This document shows, piece after piece, positions 1,097-12,437 of a stretch of 64,000 nucleotides of DNA (its first letter is position 1; each line of letters starts with the position of its first letter). Source of the DNA: Chloroflexota bacterium (lineage in GTDB: Bacteria; Chloroflexota; UBA11872); NCBI GenBank assembly GCA_011523785.1, contig WTFW01000163.1:4835-68834 (forward strand). The letters run 5' to 3'. The notes under the pieces were generated by a model. That model made no database searches, was not told where the DNA came from, and saw only the letters and a program-made list of their open reading frames with translations. A program made the translations under genes and the position numbers.

Positions 1097-2542
1097 TTGG
1101 CGCCGAAGCTGCGAGGTCTGTGTATGAGTTTCGGGAAAAGCCCGACGCGCCTTAGGCGCGGCCTGCTGGCCCTGGCCGTATCCGGGGCGGCACTGGCAGC
1201 GGCTGCGGGCATTGCGTGGGCGCACGAGGGCCGGGAGGTCCACGGGTTTACGTTTGACGTTGGGTTCCTGGTAGAGCCGGCGTATGAGGGTCAGCCGAAC
1301 GGGGTGTACCTGTCGGTGACGCGGGAGAGCGGCGTCGAGTCGGGCCACGGATCGGCCGGCGGGCACGATCACGGCGGAATGGTGGAGACCTCGGACATGT
1401 CGGTGGAGGTGACGGCGGAGGTCGACCCGATCGACGGGATCAACGTGCGCATCATGCCCAGCGGGTTTGCGTTCGCGCCGGAGCGGGTGAACCAGGCGGA
1501 CGTGGACGGCGAGGGGCACGCGCACGTTTACGTGGACGGCGAGAAGGTGGGCCGGGCCTACGGCGAATGGTTCCACCTGAAGGGTGTTGCGCCCGGGGAC
1601 CGCGAGATTCGCGTGACGCTGCAGACGAACGGCCATAGCGAATACGCGGTCGGCGGGCAGACGGTGGAGGCGGCGACGACACTCAGCGTTCCGGCAATGC
1701 CGCCGGCGCCGGAAGAGGTCGGGCAAGTTGAGGCGCCTGAAGGGATGGTCGTCGCAATCAGCCTGGAGCTGGATCCTGTGGGTGGGGCCAACCTGATGGT
1801 GATGCCGCAGGGGTTCACGATGGCTCCTGGGCAGGTCAATGCCCCGAATGTGGCAGGCGAAGGGCATCCGCATTTGTACGTGAACGGGGTGCGGCTGGGA
1901 CGGGTCTACAGTCCGTACCTGCACCTGGGGAAGCTGGCGCCGGGCATTAACGAGGTGCGGGTGACGTTGAATACGAACATGCACCAGGAGTACTCGCGCG
2001 ACGGAGAGACGATCGAAGCGGTAGCGACGATCCACATCCCGGCCGAAGGCGAAGTCCAGACGGATGACGGACACGGGGCCCGGGTTGGTGTCACGGGGCT
2101 GGCGAACAGCCTGGTGGTGGAGGTGACGCACCTGGCGGCGGACATGTCGGCCTCGGGCGTGGCGCGGCGGATGGCGCTGTCGCCGCTGCCGGGGGAGAGC
2201 GGCGGCTACGTGGCGCCGTTTATTCCAACGGTGCCGGGGCCGTACCGGTTCCGGTTTGTGGGGACGATTGACGGTTTGCCGGTCGACGAGACGTTCACGT
2301 CTGGTCCGGGCACGTTCGATGACGTGCGGTCGGCGACGGAGGCGCAGTTTCCGCGGCCGGTGCCGAGCGCGCGCGAGATTGCCGGGGTGGCCACCGCGGC
2401 GCAGTTGCAGGCGCGGGACGCATCGGACGCCTCGGCAACGGCGGTGACCGTTGCGGTTGCCGGGTTGGTGATTGGCGGGCTGGGGCTTGCAACCGGCGTT
2501 GGCCTGGCGTTGCATGCGTTCCGACGGCGTGGCGCGGGGTAG
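1097..2542 (+). CDS. Secreted protein with two tandem ~100-aa domains, each with a G-E-G-H-x-H-(V/L)-Y-V-(D/N)-G motif, plus a C-terminal TM anchor. Uncharacterised; possibly DUF4399-like metal-binding.
   Basis: Signal peptide ...AAAAGIAWA followed immediately by HEG. Internal repeat pairs: VRIMPSGFAFAPERVNQADVDGEGHAHVYVDG versus LMVMPQGFTMAPGQVNAPNVAGEGHPHLYVNG, and REIRVTLQTNGHSEY versus NEVRVTLNTNMHQEY. C-terminal hydrophobic helix VAVAGLVIGGLGLATGVGLAL. Confidence 0.55.
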   Translation: MAPKLRGLCMSFGKSPTRLRRGLLALAVSGAALAAAAGIAWAHEGREVHGFTFDVGFLVEPAYEGQPNGVYLSVTRESGVESGHGSAGGHDHGGMVETSDMSVEVTAEVDPIDGINVRIMPSGFAFAPERVNQADVDGEGHAHVYVDGEKVGRAYGEWFHLKGVAPGDREIRVTLQTNGHSEYAVGGQTVEAATTLSVPAMPPAPEEVGQVEAPEGMVVAISLELDPVGGANLMVMPQGFTMAPGQVNAPNVAGEGHPHLYVNGVRLGRVYSPYLHLGKLAPGINEVRVTLNTNMHQEYSRDGETIEAVATIHIPAEGEVQTDDGHGARVGVTGLANSLVVEVTHLAADMSASGVARRMALSPLPGESGGYVAPFIPTVPGPYRFRFVGTIDGLPVDETFTSGPGTFDDVRSATEAQFPRPVPSAREIAGVATAAQLQARDASDASATAVTVAVAGLVIGGLGLATGVGLALHAFRRRGAG

Positions 2543-4772
2543 TGCATGCGGCCCGCGGCGGGGGCCTGGGCTCCGCTGCGGGCGGCTGGCCCTGGCTGTC
2601 CTAGCCGCGTTGACGGCGCTGGCGCTGGTTGCGGCGCCGTCCGGGGCGCACGCCAACCTGGTGCGGTCGTCGCCGAGTCCAGGGACGGCGGTGGATCCCG
2701 CGCCGCCAGTGGTGTACGCGGAGTTCAGCGAGGCCATTGACCTGGGCTACAGCAGCCTGGAAGTACTGGACGCCAACGGGCAGCCGGTGACCACGGGTCC
2801 GACGGAGCCCGATCCGACTACTCCCACTGCGATGCTGGTGCCGGTGGGGGAGCTGGCGGACGGCACCTACGTGGTGGTGTGGCGGACGCTGTCGGTGGTG
2901 GACGGCCACGTGATTCGGGGGTCGTTTGCGTTTGGGGTGGGCGAGCCGGTGGCGGCGGACGTGGCGGTGGCGGTGGCGTCGATCGAGTCCAGTCCGGCGG
3001 CGGCGGTTTCGCGCTGGCTGCTGTTCGTGGGCGTGGCGGTGCTGATTGGTGGGCCGTTGCAGGCGCTGGTGCAGCGGCGCGGCGCTCAGCCGGAGCGGCG
3101 TCGGGTCGTGGAGCGGCGAACGGCGCTGCTGCTGCTGGGCGGCGGGTTGCTGGCGCTGGCGGGTCAGATCGGGTTGCTGGGGACGCAGATCCTGATCCTG
3201 GGCGGGGACTCGCTACTGGCGGGGTTTGGCGAGGTATTCAGGGCAGGGCAATGGGGCGCGCTTTGGATTGGCCGCACCGCGGCACTTGCTGTGGCGGTGG
3301 TGCTGGCCGACCAGGCGAGTTCGACGTCGGCGGGTGAGCGGCGCCAGGCGCTAGCGTTCGGCGGGGTGGCGGCGGCGGGCGTGGTGATGGCGACGAGCAT
3401 TTCGATGGGTAGCCACGCGGCGGCGCTGGTGGACGTGGGGCCGGCGCTGGTAGCCGACCTGATTCACCTGCTGGCGGTTGGCGCCTGGGTGGGCGGCCTG
3501 CCGGTGTTGCTGCTGGCGGCCTGGCAGGCGCGCGGGGCGAGAACCGGTGGAGCCGCGGCAGCCGATCTGATCGAGGTTGCGGCGCGATTCTCCGCCGTTG
3601 CGACAGTGGCCGTTGGGCTGATCGTGGTGACGGGCGCGTATAGCGCCTGGTTGCAGGTGGTGGAACCGGAGCGGTTGTGGCGTACGGCGTACGGGCTGCT
3701 GCTGGTGGTGAAGCTGGCACTGGTTGCGCCGCTGCTGGCGCTGGGCGGGGTGAACCTGGGGTGGACGCGGCCGCGGCTGGCGGGGGCTGGCGCGGCCGGG
3801 GCGCGTGCGGCGAGAGCGCTGCGGACGCTGGTGGTGGCTGAGATCGTGCTGGCGGCGGCCGTGCTTGCGGTGGTGGGCGTGCTCACGGAGCGGGAGCCGG
3901 CGCGGCAGGTCAGCGGCGACGTGCCGCTGGCGGTGGAGGGTGCCGGGGCAAGTGGCGACACGAGGGTTCGCGTGCGGGTGGCGCCGGGGCGGCCGGGCCC
4001 GAACACGCTGGAGGTTGACCTGTCGTCCCAGGACGGACGGGTCAACGACGCGGATGTTGAGTTGCAACTCAGGTATCTCGATACGGACCTGGGGACGACC
4101 GTTGAGCGTCCGGTGCGGACCGAGGAGGGGACGTTCGAGGCGGAGACCGATGCGTTCGCGCTGGCGGGGGCCTGGCAGGTGCTGGCGATCGTGCGGCAGC
4201 CGGGGGCGTTCGATGCGCGGGTGCCGGTGCGGCTGAACATCGGGTCTCCCACGGCGATTGGCGTAGCGGAAGTAGACGTGACGGTGGCGGTGCGGCTCTG
4301 GGGGCTGGCGCTGGCGGGGATGGGATTTGTGCTGGCGCTGGCCACGCTGGCCCGGCAGGGATGGGCGGCGCGGGTTCGCCAGGCGGGGACCGGAGCGGGA
4401 TTCGCGGCGATTCTGCTGGGGGCCGGGTTGCTGATCATCGGGCCGCAGCAGGGCGTGGCGCCGTCGGCGGTGAACCCGATTCGGCCGGATGATGCTTCAG
4501 TCAGCGCGGGTCGCGAGATCTTTGAGGCCGAGTGCGTGAGCTGTCACGGGCCGACAGGTCGCGGGGACGGTCCGCTGGCGGCGACGCTGGATCCGCCGCC
4601 GCTGGACCTGGTGATCCACGTGCCGCTGCATCCGGACGACGCGCTGTTTGGGTTTGTGTTCAACGGGATCGAGGGCACGGGGATGCCGGCGTTCGGGGAT
4701 CGCTATGGCGAACTGGATACGTGGCACATCATCAACTTTATCCAGACCCTGCCGGAAACGGCGCGGAGCTAG
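2472..4772 (+). CDS. Copper resistance/uptake-like fusion protein: CopC domain, CopD multi-TM domain, YtkA-like domain, and a C-terminal mono-haem cytochrome c domain. Likely start is ATG 2514 or nearby.
   Basis: CopC signature after the signal peptide (HANLVRSSPSPG...YVVVWRTLSVVDGHVIRGSFAFGV). A long polytopic hydrophobic region follows, typical of CopD. A YtkA-like beta-sandwich segment follows (TLEVDLSSQDGRVNDADVELQLRYLD...GAWQVLAIV). Then a TM helix and a CxxCH haem site (FEAECVSCHGPTGRGDG...GMPAFG) with a downstream Met ligand. Confidence 0.75.
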   Translation: MAGWGLQPALAWRCMRSDGVARGSACGPRRGPGLRCGRLALAVLAALTALALVAAPSGAHANLVRSSPSPGTAVDPAPPVVYAEFSEAIDLGYSSLEVLDANGQPVTTGPTEPDPTTPTAMLVPVGELADGTYVVVWRTLSVVDGHVIRGSFAFGVGEPVAADVAVAVASIESSPAAAVSRWLLFVGVAVLIGGPLQALVQRRGAQPERRRVVERRTALLLLGGGLLALAGQIGLLGTQILILGGDSLLAGFGEVFRAGQWGALWIGRTAALAVAVVLADQASSTSAGERRQALAFGGVAAAGVVMATSISMGSHAAALVDVGPALVADLIHLLAVGAWVGGLPVLLLAAWQARGARTGGAAAADLIEVAARFSAVATVAVGLIVVTGAYSAWLQVVEPERLWRTAYGLLLVVKLALVAPLLALGGVNLGWTRPRLAGAGAAGARAARALRTLVVAEIVLAAAVLAVVGVLTEREPARQVSGDVPLAVEGAGASGDTRVRVRVAPGRPGPNTLEVDLSSQDGRVNDADVELQLRYLDTDLGTTVERPVRTEEGTFEAETDAFALAGAWQVLAIVRQPGAFDARVPVRLNIGSPTAIGVAEVDVTVAVRLWGLALAGMGFVLALATLARQGWAARVRQAGTGAGFAAILLGAGLLIIGPQQGVAPSAVNPIRPDDASVSAGREIFEAECVSCHGPTGRGDGPLAATLDPPPLDLVIHVPLHPDDALFGFVFNGIEGTGMPAFGDRYGELDTWHIINFIQTLPETARS

Positions 4773-5251
4773 GCGCGGGCGCGGCGGCGGGCGGACCAGG
4801 TGTGGGCGGCGACGGCCGCGAAGAAGCCGCCGATGACCAGAACGCTGGGCACGACCCAGTTGGTGGGGGCCAGATCGAGCGAGTGCGAGAGTTTGGCGGG
4901 CCCGAGGGCGCTGGAGATGTCCAGGACGAGGTTCCAGTGGACTTCCTCGGGGCTTTGCTCGACGAATTCGTAGACGGAACCTGACTCAAAGGCCGTGTAT
5001 TGGGCGATGTTGACGCCGTTCTCGAAGACGGTCACGCGGACCTCGGCGCCGGGAATCCTGGCACCGGTAGAGACGTTGCGGAGGTCGACGGAGTAGTCGA
5101 GCCAGCCCTCGGCCCAGTTGGCAAAGGCGCGAACCTGGTAGGGGCCGGCGGCGCCGGTGTAGACGAGGTCGCCGCCGTGGGCCAGGACGGGTGTTGACGA
5201 CAGGGTAACGAGAGCTACAAGCACCGGCAGGAGGCGGGCGAAACCCCGCAT
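4769..5251 (-). CDS. Exported protein with His as the predicted first mature residue (HGGDLVYTG...) and a C-terminal TM anchor. CopC/YtkA-like beta-sandwich candidate.
   Basis: Signal peptide MRGFARLLPVLVALVTLSSTPVLA followed by H. C-terminal hydrophobic VVPSVLVIGGFFAAVAA plus basic tail. Its stop overlaps the stop of the converging 2472-4772 gene. Confidence 0.5.
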   Translation of the reverse strand: MRGFARLLPVLVALVTLSSTPVLAHGGDLVYTGAAGPYQVRAFANWAEGWLDYSVDLRNVSTGARIPGAEVRVTVFENGVNIAQYTAFESGSVYEFVEQSPEEVHWNLVLDISSALGPAKLSHSLDLAPTNWVVPSVLVIGGFFAAVAAHTWSARRRARA

Positions 5252-6225
5252 TAGTTCAGCGGCGGACCAGCCACGGCGGCGACGGCGGGTTCGAGTTCAA
5301 CCGCGCCGACCAGGCCCTCGAAGCGCGCGGCCACGCGCCCGGTAGAGTCGACCACGAAGACCCAGGGTTCGGTTTCGAGCTTCCACTCGCGGGCGGCGTC
5401 TGCCCATTCGAGGCGGCCCTCGGTGCGGGCGACAGCGAGATCGAAGGGCTCGATGTGGATGAAGCGCAGGCGGTCGCCAAAGTTTCGGGAGAGCTCGCCG
5501 ACGACGGCGGTAACAGGCCCGCACATGGCCGAGGTGCAGAACCCGGGGGTGCTGAAGGTCACCACCAACGGCTCGCGTCGGGCCAGCGCATCCGCGATTG
5601 AGTGATCGTAAAGAGCGGGGAGGGGCGGATCGGCGGTTGTCAGGGTTTCGAGGTTGAGTACGTCCCGGCTCGTGAGGTTAGCGAAGGCCGGCGCGGCGTC
5701 GCCGACGCGAGGAGCTGAGGTGCGGCGGCCGACCTGGAAGGCGGTCGACGTGGCGTAGGCCGAGCCGAAGGCTGGCTCCACTTCCAGGTCGGCGCGCCAG
5801 AGGCCTTCCTCGAAGTCGGCGTCGGCGACGAGGTAGTAGGAGCGCGATGCGTCGTGGACGTGGACGGCGCCGTCCGCGTGAACATGGTCGTAGCTGGCGC
5901 CGGCGACGTGCTCGCGGGCGGGCGCTTCGAAGCGAAACTCGTCGCGTTGACCGATCAGGCGGATGAAGCGCACGTTGATGTTCGCGCCGGTGACCAGCCC
6001 GCCGTCGCCGTCCACCAGGACGAAGGGAAAGCGGTGGGGTCCGGGGAGCATTTCGTTGACGGCGAGGAGGACGCTGATCCGGGGGTTGGTCGGCAGTTCG
6101 CCGCAGGCGGAAAGCCAAACGGCGAGTGCCGGGGCTCCAAGGGCCAGCACGCCGAGCAGCCTTCGTCTTGGTATCTCGCGTGCGTGGCGGGTCGGGGGCT
6201 GACTGAGAGGGTCGGGTCTGTCCAC
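5251..6225 (-). CDS. Tat-signal lipoprotein with an N-terminal His-containing beta domain and a C-terminal thioredoxin-fold (Sco/TlpA/redoxin-like) domain with a CTSAMC motif.
   Basis: RRRLLGV twin-arginine motif and lipobox LSAC. HVHADGAVHVHD His cluster. Thioredoxin-like block APAFANLTSRDVLNLETL...PLVVTFSTPGFCTSAMCGPVT. Start/stop overlap with 4769-5251 suggests an operon. Confidence 0.6.
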   Translation of the reverse strand: MDRPDPLSQPPTRHAREIPRRRLLGVLALGAPALAVWLSACGELPTNPRISVLLAVNEMLPGPHRFPFVLVDGDGGLVTGANINVRFIRLIGQRDEFRFEAPAREHVAGASYDHVHADGAVHVHDASRSYYLVADADFEEGLWRADLEVEPAFGSAYATSTAFQVGRRTSAPRVGDAAPAFANLTSRDVLNLETLTTADPPLPALYDHSIADALARREPLVVTFSTPGFCTSAMCGPVTAVVGELSRNFGDRLRFIHIEPFDLAVARTEGRLEWADAAREWKLETEPWVFVVDSTGRVAARFEGLVGAVELEPAVAAVAGPPLN

Positions 6226-6297: not shown

Positions 6298-6993
6298 ATG
6301 TCAGAGCCGCGGATTTCAGCCAGCGATCAGGACTACCTGCGGGCGATCTACGACGCGGGTGGGCACGAGCGGCGTGTGGGAACAGGTGAAGTCGCCGGTG
6401 AACTGAATCTGACGCAGGGGGCGGTGACATTCGCCTTGCAACGGCTGCATGAAAAGGGGCTGGTCAACTACCGGCGCTACCAGGGGGCGCGGCTGACCGA
6501 GGATGGCGAGCGCCACGCGCTGGAAATGGTGCGGCATCACAGGCTGATCGAACGTTTCCTGGTGGAGTTTCTGGACTACGACTGGAACGACGTGCACGAA
6601 GAGGCTGACCGGCTGGAGCATGTGATTTCGGAGGAAATGGAGCGACGAATTGCGGCCAAGGTGTCCGACCCGACGACCGACCCGCACGGGGACTCGATTC
6701 CCAACGAGGCGCTGGACGCGCTGCAGGCCGACGACGCCCGGCAGTTGACAGGGGTTGCGGACGGTACGGACTTTGTGGTGGCGCGGGTGCGGGACCGCGA
6801 CCGGGCGGTGCTGGAGTACCTGACGGAAATCCAGCTCGTACCGGGGACGGAGGCCAGCGTGGTCCGACGACTGCCGTTCGATGGACCGCTGGTGGTGCGC
6901 ATTGAGTCGGAAGAGGTGGCGCTGAGCCAGACGGTGAGCGACAGCGTGTTCATTCGCGACGCAGAGCGAGGTTCGAGTCCTCAGCGCAGCTGA
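6298..6993 (+). CDS. DtxR/IdeR/MntR-family metal-dependent transcriptional regulator with a C-terminal SH3-like (FeoA) domain.
   Basis: N-terminal wHTH (DYLRAIYDAGG...VAGELNLTQGAVTFALQRLHEKGLV), dimerisation/metal-site helix (RHHRLIERFLVEFLDYDWNDVHEEADRLEHVISEEMERRI), and a C-terminal FeoA-like beta domain. Confidence 0.9.
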   Translation: MSEPRISASDQDYLRAIYDAGGHERRVGTGEVAGELNLTQGAVTFALQRLHEKGLVNYRRYQGARLTEDGERHALEMVRHHRLIERFLVEFLDYDWNDVHEEADRLEHVISEEMERRIAAKVSDPTTDPHGDSIPNEALDALQADDARQLTGVADGTDFVVARVRDRDRAVLEYLTEIQLVPGTEASVVRRLPFDGPLVVRIESEEVALSQTVSDSVFIRDAERGSSPQRS

Positions 6994-7011
6994 AGCTGAG
7001 GGCTGGTTCGG

Positions 7012-8121
7012 CTAGCGGAGCGCGGCTTGTCGGGCGGCTTCGCGCCCCGCGGCGGTGAGGCGGAGCTGGTCGTTTTCGAGGTCGATGAGACCGCGTTCGG
7101 TGGCGGTGTGGACGACGCGGTTGGCGAATTCGGGGGGCCAGCGCATGTGGCGTTGCATGTGGTCGGGGCGGCTCTCGTCGGCCTCGGTGGGCGTGCCCTC
7201 GTGGGTGGCGAGGTGGATGAGCAACATCTGGCGGGCGAAGGTCCAGCGCTGGCGGCGGCGGCGACGGGCGGTTGCGACGAGGCCGCGCTGGGGGGCGAGA
7301 AACAGGACCAGGATGAAGGCGATGCCGACCACGGTGGCCATGGACCCGGCGATGCTGGCGTCCAACAGGCGAGCCAGCCAGTAGCCGCCGACGGCTGAGG
7401 CGGCGCCGATAACGACGCTGAGACCGAGCATGCGGGGCAGCCGGTCCGTGAGCAGGTAGGCGGCGGCCGGCGGACCGATCATGAGCGCGACGACCAGGAT
7501 CGATCCGACGGCGTCGAAGGCGCCGACGGCGGTGACCGATACCACCGCCATGAGACCGTAGTGGACAAGCGCGGGCGAGAAGCCGAGCGCGGCGGCCAGC
7601 GCGGGGTCGAAGGTGGCCAGCTTGAGTTCTTTAAAGAAGAGAGACGCGCCGGCAAGGTTGACCACCAGGATGGCGCCCATGACCCAAAGCGCAATCGGTC
7701 CCAGGTCCACCCCGAATGGCGCGAATCGGTTGAACGGCGCAAAGGCGATCTCGCCAAGTAGCACGACATCGCTGTCCAGATGAACGTTGCCGGCGAGGCT
7801 GGAGATCAGAATCACGGCGATAGAAAAGAGGGCGGGGAAGACGAGGCCGATGGCGGTGTCTTCGCGAACGAGACCGGTTCGGCTGACCATCTCGACGAGG
7901 ACCACCGTCAATAGCCCGACGAGGGCGGCGCCGAGGATGAGGACCGGCGAGTTGAGATCGGCGACGACAAAGAAGGCCAACACGATGCCGAGCAGCACGG
8001 TGTGGCTGATGGCATCGCTCATCATCGCCATGCGACGCAGCACCAGGAACGTGCCGGGGATTGCGCACGCGGCGGCGACGACAACGGCCACGAGCAGAAC
8101 GTCGATCTGGGCCGACGTCAT
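7012..8121 (-). CDS. ABC-3 family (Mn/Zn/Fe chelate) transporter permease with a C-terminal cytoplasmic DtxR-N-terminal-like winged-helix extension.
   Basis: Polytopic ABC-3 permease core. After the last TM the tail TFARQMLLIHLATHEGTPTEA...RVVHTATERGLIDLENDQLRLTAAGREAARQAAL aligns with the DtxR N-terminus (TEMYLRTIYELEEEGVTP...TVARMERDGLVVV...LQMTPTGR). Confidence 0.85.
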   Translation of the reverse strand: MTSAQIDVLLVAVVVAAACAIPGTFLVLRRMAMMSDAISHTVLLGIVLAFFVVADLNSPVLILGAALVGLLTVVLVEMVSRTGLVREDTAIGLVFPALFSIAVILISSLAGNVHLDSDVVLLGEIAFAPFNRFAPFGVDLGPIALWVMGAILVVNLAGASLFFKELKLATFDPALAAALGFSPALVHYGLMAVVSVTAVGAFDAVGSILVVALMIGPPAAAYLLTDRLPRMLGLSVVIGAASAVGGYWLARLLDASIAGSMATVVGIAFILVLFLAPQRGLVATARRRRRQRWTFARQMLLIHLATHEGTPTEADESRPDHMQRHMRWPPEFANRVVHTATERGLIDLENDQLRLTAAGREAARQAALR

Positions 8122-9251
8122 AGATCGGCGGACGGCGTACGCCGCAGTCGAGCCAACCGGTCGGCTTCAGCCAGGCCGCGGGGGGTCAGCGACCAGCCGC
8201 CGGCATCGTGCCGCTGGGCCAAGCCATCGGCGGCGAGTTCGCTGAGTGCGCGATCCACGAGGGCGCGACCGCGCACCGCATGCAGGGCGGCGATATCGTG
8301 CGGACGGGTGGCGTCTGAGCTGTGTTGCGCCGCGAGCGCCGCCAAGTCCGACATCACAGCTTCGAGCGCCAGGATTCGCTGGCTGCGCCAGGCGTGCATG
8401 CGGGTCCACACGAGGCCGCGGGCCGGCGCAACGAGCAGGGATACGACCACCAGACCAGTGGCGACCAGCACGATCGTGGGTCCGGTAGACGTCTGGGCCG
8501 TGGTGCTGATCAGCGCCCCCAGCACGCCGGCCGCAGCGCCGAACAGGGCGGAGAGCGTGACCATGACCCCGAGGCGGTTGGTCCACTGGCGGGCGGCGGC
8601 CCCTGGCGCCACGACCATCGCGCTCATCAGGACCACGCCGACGGTCTTGAGACCGACGACGATGGCGATGACGAGGAGGCTGGTGAGGAGCAAATCCAGG
8701 CGCCGGGTGGGCACTCCAAGCGTGGCGGCGAAGTCCGGATCGAAACTCAGCAGCTTGAACTCTTTCCAGAGCACCAGCACCCCGAGCAGACCGACGGCGC
8801 CGACCGATGCCATGGTGATGACATCGCTTTCGAGCATGGCGGCGGCCTGTCCGAACAGGAACTTGTCGAGCCCGGCCTTGCCGGCAGCGGGCCGTCGCTG
8901 GATGAAGGTCAGTACGACCAGCCCGGCGCCAAAGAAGACGCTCAGCATGAGGGCCATGGCGGTATCGGTCTTGACGCGGGAAGCGCGAATGATGCCGGCG
9001 ATGGCCACGGCTGCGAGCCAGCCGGTGAGGGCCGCGCCAATCATCAGCACCAGCGGCGCGCGGCTGCCGGTAATCAGGAAGGCCAGGGCGACCCCGGGCA
9101 GCGCGGCATGCGACATGGCGTCGCCGAGCAGAGCCTGGCGACGGAGCACGGCAAAGGCGCCGAGAGCGCCGCTGACGATGCCAAGGGCGGCGGAGCCCAG
9201 CGCGACGGTTCGCAGCGTGTAGTCCAGGGCCATGTCGCTCAGCACATCCAC
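8118..9251 (-). CDS. ABC-3 family metal transporter permease (second permease), also with a C-terminal DtxR-like winged-helix extension.
   Basis: Polytopic permease core. Tail ...ALSELAADGLAQRHDAGGWSLTPRGLAEADRLARLRR resembles the DtxR wHTH wing and the start of the RKHRL helix. It has a 4-nt overlap with the downstream permease. Confidence 0.85.
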   Translation of the reverse strand: MDVLSDMALDYTLRTVALGSAALGIVSGALGAFAVLRRQALLGDAMSHAALPGVALAFLITGSRAPLVLMIGAALTGWLAAVAIAGIIRASRVKTDTAMALMLSVFFGAGLVVLTFIQRRPAAGKAGLDKFLFGQAAAMLESDVITMASVGAVGLLGVLVLWKEFKLLSFDPDFAATLGVPTRRLDLLLTSLLVIAIVVGLKTVGVVLMSAMVVAPGAAARQWTNRLGVMVTLSALFGAAAGVLGALISTTAQTSTGPTIVLVATGLVVVSLLVAPARGLVWTRMHAWRSQRILALEAVMSDLAALAAQHSSDATRPHDIAALHAVRGRALVDRALSELAADGLAQRHDAGGWSLTPRGLAEADRLARLRRTPSADL

Positions 9252-9287
9252 CGGTTCTGCGGTCCTAGCGACGCACGAGCGGTGGGT

Positions 9288-10067
9288 TCACGCCAACATG
9301 TCCAGAGGGGTCGCGTTGGCGCGGCCGCCGATTCCGGCAACTCGACCGCCGTAGGTGAGGCGCAGGTTCTCCTCAGTGAAGACCTCGTCGACGGGTCCCG
9401 CGGCGATGCGGCGTACGTTGAGGAGGGTGACCTGGTCGAAGTATTCGGCGACGGTTTGCAGGTCGTGGTGCACGGCGACGACCGTTTTACCGGCGGTGCG
9501 CAGAGCGCGCAGCAAGTCGACAATGGCGCGCTCGGTGGTGGCGTCGACTCCCTGGAACGGCTCGTCCATCAGGTAGATCTCGGCGTCCTGGACCAGCGCC
9601 CGCGCCAGAAAGACCCGCTGCTGCTGACCGCCCGAGAGTTGGCTGATCTGGCGGTCGGCGTAGTCCTGCATCCCCACTTGCTCCAGGGCGGCGGTGGCGC
9701 GCGAGCGCTCGGACGCTCCGGGACGCTTTACCCAACCCAGGCTGCCGTAGGTGCCCATGGTGACGACATCCAGTGCGGTGGTGGGAAAGTCCCAGTCCAC
9801 GCTGCCGCGCTGGGGGACATACGCGACCAGCCCTCGCTGTTCGAGGTAGGAGCGGCCGAACACGAGAACCTCGCCGGCAGCCGGCCGCAGCAGACCGAGC
9901 AACGTTCGCAGGAGGGTAGTCTTGCCGGCGCCGTTGGGTCCTACGATGGCCATCAGGACGCCCCGTGGAACTTCCAGGTCCACGTCCCACAGAACGGGCC
10001 GCTGCTGATAGGCCAGGGTGAGGTCGGTGGCCTGGACGGCCAGGGCGTTGCCGGTGCGAAGGCGCAC
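9288..10067 (-). CDS. Metal ABC transporter ATP-binding protein (ZnuC/MntA-like).
   Basis: Walker [13 protein letters not shown] signature LSGGQQQRV, Walker [14 protein letters not shown]-loop AVHHD. Confidence 0.92.
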
Positions 10068-10069
10068 GC

Positions 10070-11044
10070 CTATGCCTTCCGCAGCGCCGCGACGATGGTG
10101 TCGATGTTGTGGCGAATCATGCCGAGATAGGTGCCTTCCTCGGTGCCCTCCGCGCCCATGGCGTCGGAGAAAATCTCGCCGCCGATCGTCACGGTGTGAC
10201 CGCGGGCGGCGGCGGCCTCGATGACTGCCTGCACGCCCTGATCAGGCACCGACGACTCGATGAAGACCGCCGGGATCCCACGCTCGCTGATAAAACGCGC
10301 CAGCTCCTGCACGTCGGCCGTGCTGGCCTCGCTCTCGGTGCTGATGCCCTGCAGGCCGCGCACCTGCATGCCGTAGCGGTTGGCGAAGTAGTTGAAGGCG
10401 TCGTGGGCGGTGATGAGGACGCGCACACGTTCTTCGATTTCCTGCGCGCGCGCCTTGACATACATGTCCAGTTCGGCGATCTCGGCGATGTAGGCGGCGG
10501 CATTGGCGCGGTAGGCCTCGGCTCCCTCGGGGTCCATGGCGACCAGGGCGTCGCGGATGGATTCGACCGCCGTCGACCAGAGGTCCAGGTCAAACCAGAC
10601 GTGTGGGTCGTAGGCGCCGTCGAACTCGGGCGGAGCCAGGAGGCGGGTCCGGTCAATGTGGTCGGTTACGCGGATGGAATGGACACCGAGATCGACCATG
10701 CGTTCAAGGACGCCGGACATGCCGGCTTCCAGGTGCAGGCCGTTCCAGAAGACGGCGTCGGCCGATTCGAGGCGGGTAATGTCGCTTTCGCTGGCCCGGT
10801 AGAGGTGGGGGTCAACACCGCTGCCCATGAGGCCCTGGACCTCCACGCGGTCGCCGCCGACGTGGCGCACGGCGTCGGCAATCTGGCCAATGGTTGCGAC
10901 AACGCGTAGCGGGCGGCCGTCCGCGAGATCGACGGGCGCCGGCTTGCTCGCGGCTGGGACTGATTCGCCGGCCGCATCGGTCTCGCAGGCCGCCAACGCC
11001 AAGACGGCCAGCAGTAACCCGGCCACCAGCGCCACCGTCCGCAC
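10070..11044 (-). CDS. Metal ABC transporter substrate-binding lipoprotein (TroA/ZnuA/MntC cluster 9 family). The track ORF extends to 11083 via TTG; a GTG start at 11044 gives a clean lipoprotein signal.
   Basis: [20 protein letters not shown] lipobox. Family blocks [26 protein letters not shown] and [15 protein letters not shown]. It has a 4-nt overlap with the ATPase gene. Confidence 0.88.
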
Positions 11045-11189
11045 TTCTGACCCTTTCACCTGTTGGACACTGCGCAAACTCAAAGAGCGCGCCGCTTTAC
11101 AGGCACCCTGTAATCCAACTTCGCTTATCTAAACAAAAGTTTTGAGCCAGGTCAAACCAGCCGAGATGTGCGAGCGACCTGGACGATTG

Positions 11190-12437
11190 CTAGGTGGCGC
11201 CTCGGCGCCGCGCGGCTGGGGCGGATTCGCCGGCGGCGATGGCGAGGAGGGCGGAGAGGGCGGCGAAGGCGAGCATGGTGAAGGCGCTGGCGGTGAAGTC
11301 GAGGACGTCCACGGCGACGCCGAGGCCGAGGGGGGTGAGGGCGACGCCGATATCGCGCAGGAAGGCGTGGGTGCCGAGAGCCGCGCCCAGACGCTCGCGC
11401 GGGGCGCGGTCCACGACGGTTGAGGTAATGGTGGGAATCGCGCCGCCGCCGAGGCCAAAGGCCAGGCCGAACAGTACATAGGTGGCGGCGTTGCCGGCCT
11501 GGCTGACGAGGACGCTGACCAGGCCCATGGCCAGCGCGCTGGGCACGTAGACCCAGAGGCGTCCGTAGCGATCGGACATGGCGCCGGCGACGATGGCCAC
11601 GGGGAAGCGCATGAGGGTGGAAAGGGAGATGGCAATGCCGATCAGGAACGGCTGGAGGTTGAGGACCTCGCCGCCGAAGAGGGGATAGAAGAAAGCCTTG
11701 AAGCCGAAGATGGGGACCGCCAGGGCCATGGCCATGCCGTTGACGAACAGCAGACGGCCGGGCGAGTAGATCGCGCGGCGGGCGAAGCGCAGGGGGCTTT
11801 CAGGTCGGCCGGGGCTAAGTGTGGACGCCTGGGCGGGCGGCGGGTCGTCCTTTACATAACGTTTCACCATGAACATCCCGGCCAGGATGGCCAGGACGGT
11901 CAGGAGCATGCCGATGCGCCAGTGGGCCAGGGTGGCGACGGCGCCGACGACGACGGGGGAGAGGAAGCCGCCCATCATGGTGGCGGAGCTAACGGCGCCT
12001 AGCATGCGCCCGCGCTCGCGTTCGGGAGCCTGGCGGGCAACGTAGGCCTGGGCGGCAGCGCTGGCGGTGATGGACCCCGCGCCCTCGACGATGCGGCCGA
12101 GCAGGAGCAGCCAGTAGAAGGGCGCCGCAACTGTAAGTATGACGCCGAGGATGGCCAGCGCGCCGCCGCCGTAGAAGAGGGGATGCAGGCGAATCCGGTC
12201 GACCAGGGCCCCCATGGGCAGGTTGATGAGAAGGCGGGCGACGGCAAAGCTGGCAATGAGCGCGGCGAGGGCCGTTCCGGCAGTGTCCTCGAGATTGAAG
12301 TCGCGGCTGATCGGCGCCAGGACCGAGGCGATGGAGCCGTTGCCAAAAGCGACGGCCACGGTAATGGCCATGGACGCCAGCACGTCGCGCGGCAGATCCA
12401 GGACCGCGAGCCAGGGGAGGCGGCGACGGGGTGGCAT
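11190..12437 (-). CDS. MFS transporter.
   Basis: Twelve-TM-like hydrophobic profile. MFS motif-A-like GALVDRIRLHPLFYGG and a second-half repeat MSDRYGR. Confidence 0.8.
   Translation of the reverse strand: MPPRRRLPWLAVLDLPRDVLASMAITVAVAFGNGSIASVLAPISRDFNLEDTAGTALAALIASFAVARLLINLPMGALVDRIRLHPLFYGGGALAILGVILTVAAPFYWLLLLGRIVEGAGSITASAAAQAYVARQAPERERGRMLGAVSSATMMGGFLSPVVVGAVATLAHWRIGMLLTVLAILAGMFMVKRYVKDDPPPAQASTLSPGRPESPLRFARRAIYSPGRLLFVNGMAMALAVPIFGFKAFFYPLFGGEVLNLQPFLIGIAISLSTLMRFPVAIVAGAMSDRYGRLWVYVPSALAMGLVSVLVSQAGNAATYVLFGLAFGLGGGAIPTITSTVVDRAPRERLGAALGTHAFLRDIGVALTPLGLGVAVDVLDFTASAFTMLAFAALSALLAIAAGESAPAARRRGAT

Follow-up and report, generated by a model that had tools for sequence, protein, structure and literature searches.

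Fusion of a permease to a DtxR-like domain is already known among ATP-binding cassette (ABC) importers, as are regulatory add-ons of these importers. In Chlamydia trachomatis, the TroC-like permease YtgC (CT069) is fused to the DtxR/TroR-like repressor YtgR, a full repressor that keeps the DtxR metal-coordinating residues, is cleaved off as a ~28-30 kDa fragment, binds DNA and represses the ytg and trpBA promoters (PMC5599777, PMC7755916). Here we describe a Tro-type operon of a Chloroflexota bacterium in which both ABC-3 permeases, permease A (TroC-like) and permease B (TroD-like), end in a shorter DtxR-like tail. The operon lies in a 64,000-nucleotide stretch of contig WTFW01000163.1 (assembly GCA_011523785.1, positions 4,835 to 68,834 of the forward strand), hereafter called the window. 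The original prediction made from this DNA held the function of such a fusion to be unstudied, which the published work on YtgC-YtgR contradicts; in our literature search, we did not find a permease-DtxR-like fusion described outside Chlamydia.

In MetNI (C2 domain) and ModBC, cytoplasmic substrate binds C-terminal regulatory domains that dimerize under the nucleotide-binding domains (NBDs), stopping transport. For ABC-3 metal importers, control is stated as expression and efflux only in the paper on PsaBC (PMC8346216), and a sensing domain on the ATPase ZnuC was reported only in 2025, when cryo-electron microscopy of the E. coli importer indicated that Zn binding to this zinc-sensing domain locks ZnuBC (PMC12236471).

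Like YtgC-YtgR, the window permeases belong to the ABC-3 family, to a Tro/Ytg-type importer, and have a C-terminal DtxR/TroR-like domain. Unlike YtgR, their tails consist of a winged helix-turn-helix (wHTH) domain and one further helix only, lack the DtxR metal sites and are not complete repressors; the window system also has tails on both permeases, a different His/Glu cluster and a separate soluble regulator. With Treponema TroABCD-TroR, the operon shares the TroA ligand motifs, two permeases, an ATPase and a DtxR-family regulator. The likeness to the ZnuC domain lies in the ABC-3 family of transmembrane domains (TMDs), a cytoplasmic C-terminal add-on, conserved residues of metal-ligand type and a proposed lock in metal-replete cells, but the ZnuC domain is carried by the ATPase rather than a permease and is a small Cys/His (CxxxHxCC) fold rather than a wHTH. 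The MetNI and ModBC domains differ in being part of the NBD, in having other folds and in responding to non-metal or oxyanion substrates. Compared to the N-terminal domain of DtxR, MntR and IdeR, the window tails have no domain 2, and their recognition surface appears neither conserved nor basic.

Results

Conservation of the permease tails

Both permeases continue past their last transmembrane helix into a tail of about the length originally predicted (~90 amino acids, aa), as the PF00950 match ends at residue 274 in each. We set the start of the tails using the solved homologs PsaC and ZnuB, which can be aligned to about residue 279 only, and this gives tails of ~98 aa (residues 280-377) in permease A and ~90 aa (residues 280-369) in permease B. 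When GFP is fused to a C-terminus and folds, that end of the protein is usually cytoplasmic. Since PsaC has been produced and purified with GFP at its C-terminus (PMC8346216), the permease C-terminus is, by analogy, probably cytoplasmic.

We assembled a sample of 80 species-level GTDB loci with adjacent A and B genes, covering Chloroflexota, Thermodesulfobacteriota, other 'Deltaproteobacteria', Rhodothermales, Poribacteria, Dadabacteria and Ignavibacteria. The tails are conserved in orthologous permeases: a tail of at least 80 aa is kept in 75/78 A and 79/80 B orthologs, the single short B being cut off, and the best 120 database homologs of permease A are all 367-411 aa long. Because the tails are retained in nearly all of the 80 loci and the 120 homologs are of matching length, they are not products of chance read-through of an open reading frame (ORF). 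Mean column identity is 42% for tail A and 50% for tail B, compared to ~70% for the whole proteins.

In three species (two Chloroflexaceae and one Thermomicrobiales; loci L042, L047 and L077), permease A has no tail and the permease B tail is kept. Permease A of these species stops 29-42 aa past residue 276, and we found no wHTH remnant downstream in any frame. These tail-less permeases are of a size with Treponema TroC (304/298 aa), and permease B of the window is of a size with Treponema TroD (366/367 aa; PMC2628430 Table 1). Judged by length, the extra residues of TroD would correspond to the same C-terminal wHTH domain; the window differs from the Treponema system in that its TroC-like subunit also carries a tail.

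An exhaustive search of 1.84 billion representatives with the tail A profile returned 301 clusters at E ≤ 1e-3. Among the 150 matches listed, the full-length ones (367-415 aa) are A-type permeases with the domain at their C-terminus (~288-409), and the shorter ones resemble C-terminal fragments; there was no regulator-sized protein with an N-terminal tail A domain and no match that linked tail A with DtxR regulators or with B-type tails. By these profile comparisons, the tail domain is a distinct family, so far found on these transporters only among the 150 matches listed. Proteins with these tails are named 'metal ABC transporter permease' or 'iron chelate uptake ABC transporter family permease subunit' in the database, and the tails are widespread but unannotated at present.

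The database searches also returned other proteins. Two non-permeases, P0266 (1424 aa) and P0247 (201 aa), match the tail A profile in 6 and 3 tandem stretches, respectively; both contain winged-helix repeats that carry a motif of the same kind (...RGL/W...W.LT..G), and their context is unrelated. Word-indexed database searches with the tails only gave no more than 1 and 6 fragments, all short and several with frameshifts, and tblastn of tail B against plasmids gave no match. Proteins P0001-P0007 and about 43 of the profile-search matches (P0128-P0276) are short (the latter ≤ 90 aa), and many begin exactly at the wHTH, opening with V/M-L-x-D-L-Y or MLLIHL..., with frameshifts in P0004, P0005 and P0007. 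We considered the 72-80-aa database proteins as stand-alone tail genes and rejected them as most likely gene-calling artefacts, given their GTG/ATG starts or frameshifts. The short proteins that start at the wHTH are probably of this kind, arising around the Arg-codon-rich linker where contigs are truncated or contain indels.

Relation of the tails to DtxR-family repressors

A match to PF01325, the N-terminal domain of DtxR-family repressors, had been expected on the tails, yet neither window tail gave one up to E=10. Among the tail A orthologs, this family was matched in 4/48 (all at E ≥ 0.035), and for the 49 tail B orthologs it was not one of the 25 families with the most frequent matches. 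The Pfam matches of the tails were to generic wHTH families only and below gathering thresholds (HVO_A0261_N for A, E 6e-5; HemN_C for B), the NCBIfam matches were likewise generic and sub-threshold, and pairwise BLASTP of tail A against tail B or against the neighboring regulator found nothing. The tails are too divergent for the Pfam PF01325 model.

Profile comparisons pointed to a relationship. Searched against PDB sequences, the tail profiles matched mostly DtxR-family chains in one consistent register (E 0.04-1.4). We then used hhalign with a reference profile of 21 non-redundant DtxR-family regulators from the same loci, this being the only wHTH family profile that was compared. Tail A aligned to it with a probability of 90% (E 1.6e-6, score 41.6) over 70 columns, from helix 1 to helix 4, and tail B with a probability of 34% (E 4e-4, score 28.0) over 46 columns. 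Control comparisons with reversed or column-shuffled profiles scored 8-15, which places the likeness of the tails to the DtxR N-terminal domain above background. The register in these alignments, in which helix 1 closes with ...HEG/...QH and helix 4 opens with LTxxG, is the one that had been proposed from alignment by hand. The tail A and tail B profiles matched each other with a probability of 93%, and the two tails can be aligned almost gaplessly at ~22% identity, indicating that the two tails are paralogous copies of one module.

The predicted structures agree with these alignments. In a full-length AlphaFold2 model of permease A, the tail is predicted with a pLDDT (predicted local distance difference test) of 88-92, with a bridge at residue 318 and a hairpin at 345-347/353-355, and a helix spanning residues 280-309 (pLDDT ~88) joins the juxtamembrane segment to the wHTH. 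Tail B, modeled alone, has a mean pLDDT of 92.5 and the topology of tail A plus a one-turn helix at residues 313-316; compared to DtxR, tail B has an extra insertion between helices 1 and 2 that holds this one-turn helix and an invariant Glu. In both permeases the juxtamembrane helix passes without a break into helix 1 of the wHTH and is basic, with a mean net charge across orthologs of +4.2 (A) and +5.0 (B). In a Foldseek search with tail B, the top 30 PDB chains were mostly MntR, IdeR, DR2539 and DtxR. According to these models, the tails are winged helices followed by the first helix of the 'dimerization' region, and their nearest fold relatives are DtxR and MntR, clearly so for tail B, whereas for tail A PadR and MarR are equally near. 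Agreement between hhalign, AlphaFold and the fold searches thus bears out the proposal that the tails resemble DtxR from its N-terminal domain to the start of dimerization, and the modules and the N-terminal half of DtxR/MntR/TroR repressors have a common ancestor or, at the least, a common fold.

The tails contain only ~75-80 aa of DtxR-like domain, a wHTH plus one helix, and break off at the counterpart of regulator residue 79; the domain 2 metal sites of DtxR/MntR therefore cannot exist there. Consistent with this, DtxR sites 1 and 2 (H79, E83, H98 / C102, E105, H106) are absent, and PF02742 gave no match on the tails. The suggestion that the tails lack metal-binding residues therefore stands for the DtxR sites, but it does not hold for the tails as a whole, which have an invariant His/Glu cluster of their own.

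Conserved His and Glu residues in the tails

We identified the cluster from column counts in orthologs. For tail B, which was counted across Chloroflexota, Thermodesulfobacteriota, Rhodothermales, Poribacteria and Dadabacteria, residues H303, H307 and E316 are each conserved in 49/49 sequences, E308 in 46/49, H321 in 44/49 and H325 in 41/49. In the predicted fold, the HxxxHE motif ends helix 1, the Glu lies in the inserted loop helix and the HxxxH motif is on helix 2. The other invariant residues of tail B are structural Gly, Pro, Ala and Phe, and R287 and Q291 of the basic helix. In tail A, H310 and H318 are each present in 47/48 orthologs and D302 in 37/48 (with Asn in 7 more); position 316 is His in 35/48 orthologs and Arg in the window. 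We predict that these clusters are cytoplasmic metal ligands, and infer from the nature and conservation of the residues that they would bind metal.

DNA-reading surface, linked regulator and promoter region

The surface by which DtxR-family proteins read DNA has a different character in the tails. The mean net charge of the wHTH across orthologs is -1.0 for A and -2.3 for B, and conservation within the tails is lowest in helix 3 and the wing (0.51-0.57), whose charge is about neutral. In bona fide regulators from the same loci, by contrast, helix 3 is the most conserved segment (0.72) and has a charge of +1.6. As judged from these alignments, a conserved basic DNA-reading surface is absent from the tails. 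The original prediction had raised binding of DNA at the membrane as one possible role; since helix 3 and the wing are poorly conserved and uncharged, unlike those of the same-locus regulators, this is the less likely reading.

The separate soluble DtxR-family regulator that had been predicted nearby is present, and its gene is convergent on the 3' end of the operon (Table 1). It has the architecture Fe_dep_repress, Fe_dep_repr_C and a FeoA/SH3-like domain, with an MntR-type family as its best NCBIfam match, and a DtxR-family homolog is linked to the operon in 43/80 loci. Upstream of the solute-binding protein (SBP) gene we read a candidate promoter by eye; it is kept in the close relatives L004, L006, L009 and L013. 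A consensus scanner called no sigma-70 promoter, this one included, and no terminator in 6900-11300. An AT-rich imperfect palindrome lies within the candidate promoter; it has the form CTAAAAAC-ATTT-GTTTAG in L004, L006 and L013, has a TTTT middle in L009, and occurs as variants in L001 and L010. The soluble DtxR/MntR-type regulator probably uses this palindrome as its operator.

A second palindrome, the perfect 7-3-7 repeat TTACAGG-NNN-CCTGTAA at 11097-11113, lies between the candidate -10 hexamer and the SBP start and is unique in the window (expected 0.01). We rejected it as a conserved operator, as it is absent in all 80 related loci, even in those with ~90% identical proteins.

Transport core and gene neighborhood

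The features of the locus are collected in Table 1. The PF00950 scores of permeases A and B are 234.5 and 154.8 bits against a gathering cut-off of 20.1, and the permease A stop codon overlaps the permease B start codon. The coordination site in transmembrane helix 2, defined in PsaC as D46/H50 (PMC8346216), is present in both permeases, as GDAMSHAALPG in A and SDAISHTVLLG in B; its Asp and His (D36/H40 in permease B) are invariant in orthologs. As this translocation site is kept in A and B, both permeases appear to be transport-competent. The best PDB match of the SBP is T. pallidum TroA (1toa, E 2.9e-85), and all four TroA ligand motifs, FSDAMG among them, are kept. This closeness of the SBP to TroA indicates a Tro-type general transition-metal importer, and the presence of PF00950, the Asp/His site, a TroA-like cluster A-I SBP and an ABC ATPase places the operon in that group; from its sequence, we classify it as a TroABCD-type general transition-metal (Mn/Fe/Zn) ABC importer. 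The closest related locus, in the metagenome-assembled genome RHO3_bin_23, is 95% identical.

The CxxxHxCC motif of the ZnuC zinc-sensing domain was found in 0/77 orthologous ATPases and is likewise missing from the window ATPase, which contains no Cys. Any sensor of the importer must accordingly sit elsewhere than in a ZnuC-type domain of the ATPase. The C-terminal third of the 77 ATPases almost never has a Cys, in contrast to the Cys-rich sensing tail of ZnuC.

Just upstream, at 2472-4772 on the + strand, is a gene for a 766-aa fusion of CopC, CopD and a C-terminal c-type cytochrome (PF04234, PF05425, PF13442), and this CopC/CopD fusion places the Tro operon in a metal-homeostasis neighborhood. 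Two ORFs on the - strand between the Cop fusion and the Tro region (4769-5251 and 5251-6225) had no Pfam match.

Table 1. Features of the Tro-type locus, in window coordinates.
Feature	Position	Strand	Basis or detail
Soluble DtxR/MntR/TroR-family regulator	6298-6993	+	PF01325 + PF02742 + PF04023; convergent on operon 3' end
Permease B, ABC-3, TroD-like, 369 aa	7012-8121	-	PF00950 at residues 7-274, E 4e-45
Permease B predicted winged-helix domain, residues 293-368	7018..7245	-	Helix 1, one-turn helix 313-316, helix 2 319-326, helix 3 330-342, wing 346-355, helix 4 357-368
Tail B His/Glu cluster (predicted ligands) H303, H307, E308, E316, H321, H325 (HxxxHE ... E ... HxxxH)	7147..7215	-	Column counts
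Permease B basic juxtamembrane helix, residues 280-292, RRRRRQRW	7246..7284	-	AlphaFold2 helix 278-307
Permease B transmembrane domain, residues 1-279	7285..8121	-	PF00950
Permease A, ABC-3, TroC-like, 377 aa	8118-9251	-	PF00950 at residues 11-274
Permease A predicted winged-helix domain, residues 294-371	8139..8372	-	Helix 1, helix 2 321-327, helix 3 329-341, wing 345-355, helix 4 357-371
Tail A ligand-type residues D302, H310, H318	8298..8348	-	Column counts
Permease A basic juxtamembrane helix, residues 280-293, continuous with wHTH helix 1	8373..8414	-	AlphaFold2
Permease A transmembrane domain, residues 1-279	8415..9251	-	
ABC ATPase, TroB-like	9288..10067	-	PF00005
Solute-binding protein, TroA ortholog	10070..11083	-	PF01297 ZnuA, E 1e-80; best PDB match 1toa
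Candidate promoter TTGACC-18 nt-TAGATA, upstream of SBP gene	11126..11155	-	Read by eye
AT-rich imperfect palindrome CTCAAAAC-TTTT-GTTTAG (putative operator)	11129-11146	-	Most of promoter spacer; overlaps -10 hexamer

Discussion

We propose, with somewhat less than even confidence, that the tails are a winged-helix module that derives from a repressor and has been exapted, on the permeases, for cytoplasmic metal sensing and autoinhibition. In this proposal, a winged-helix domain would have passed from DNA binding to regulation of the transporter itself. The A and B tails would pair beside or under the ATPase dimer and would bind cytoplasmic metal via the clusters at the end of helix 1, in the helix 1-helix 2 loop and on helix 2, with H303/H307/E308/E316/H321/H325 as ligands in B and D302/H310/(H316)/H318 in A. 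In metal-replete cells, the tails would then restrain the ATPase/TMD cycle, a trans-inhibition like that exerted by the ZnuC zinc-sensing domain or the MetN/ModC C-terminal domains, but with the sensor on the permeases, and transcriptional control would be left to the separate soluble regulator. We infer that such restraint would amount to inhibition of transport by the tails.

We arrive at this metal-sensing reading because the tails are retained across phyla with invariant H/H/E and HxxxH pairs and a near-invariant H310/H318; because their DNA-reading surface is atypical, a separate regulator is linked to the operon in 43/80 loci, and the domain is limited to permease C-termini among the full-length matches listed; and because ZnuC provides a precedent in the same transporter family, while the ATPases of these loci are without a ZnuC-type domain. 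That Tro-type Mn/Fe/Zn importers, probably including Treponema TroD, use a repressor-derived permease winged helix as a pump-gating metal sensor is a broader claim that we make with slightly more reserve.

Several points weigh against the metal-sensing proposal. Among permease-DtxR fusions, YtgCR alone has been studied by experiment, and it is a repressor that binds DNA. An interface between proteins or a hand-off site is another role that the conserved His and Glu residues could have, and the pairing of the A and B tails and their contact with the ATPase are conjecture. Three species have no A tail, nor, by length, does Treponema TroC, so an obligate A/B heterodimer is not universal. The alignment used to model tail B mixed B and A tails, and the two structural models are thus not fully independent.

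The example of YtgC-YtgR, which belongs to the same transporter family and is cleaved to repress its own operon (PMC5599777, PMC7755916), suggests that the tails might bind DNA, either tethered to the membrane like ToxR/CadC or released like YtgR, with A and B forming a pseudo-dimeric tro repressor or co-regulator. The nearest structural relatives of the tails are indeed DNA-binding repressors, and there is an operator-like palindrome in the promoter. However, the tails lack the DtxR dimerization/metal domain that YtgR keeps, the domain is net acidic with helix 3 and the wing least conserved, unlike same-locus regulators, the operon already comes with a linked, complete soluble regulator, and species without an A tail still have the B tail. 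We consider DNA binding by the tails quite unlikely on this balance.

A structural or protein-docking module without metal sensing, which would stabilize the TMD-ATPase assembly or dock a partner, has a rather low probability in our view. Docking might serve, for example, to sequester the soluble TroR/MntR-like regulator via the homologous helix 4 surface or to bind a metallochaperone. wHTH domains are often protein-protein modules, the Pfam matches of the tails include the non-DNA-binding HemN_C, MksE and eS19/eS10-like families, the tails extend into the DtxR dimerization region by its first helix, and the long helix between transmembrane helix 8 and the domain, predicted to be well ordered, is suggestive of a rigid strut. 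Yet invariant H/H/E and paired HxxxH residues are more characteristic of metal sites than of simple interfaces, the homologous PsaBC and ZnuBC form their complexes with no tail at all, and we identified no partner candidate. The same residues could also form a cytoplasmic metal-acceptor or exit site that hands the ion to cellular ligands without gating transport, given that ligand-type residues are found on a domain anchored at the cytoplasmic end of the last transmembrane helix and that both permeases keep the upstream Asp/His translocation site. This is improbable, as the 30-residue helix (~45 Å if straight) puts the cluster far from the pore exit and other family members need no such site.

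If the metal-sensing proposal is correct, post-translational metal feedback would extend to Mn/Fe/Zn importers, with the sensor on the TMD rather than the NBD, and the DNA-binding fold of a repressor would have been re-used as an allosteric module. The tailed permeases would also provide an evolutionary bridge to, and context for, the Chlamydia YtgC-YtgR fusion. Importers with such tails are widespread, in Chloroflexota, Thermodesulfobacteriota, Rhodothermales, Poribacteria and, judging by protein length, also pathogenic Treponema.

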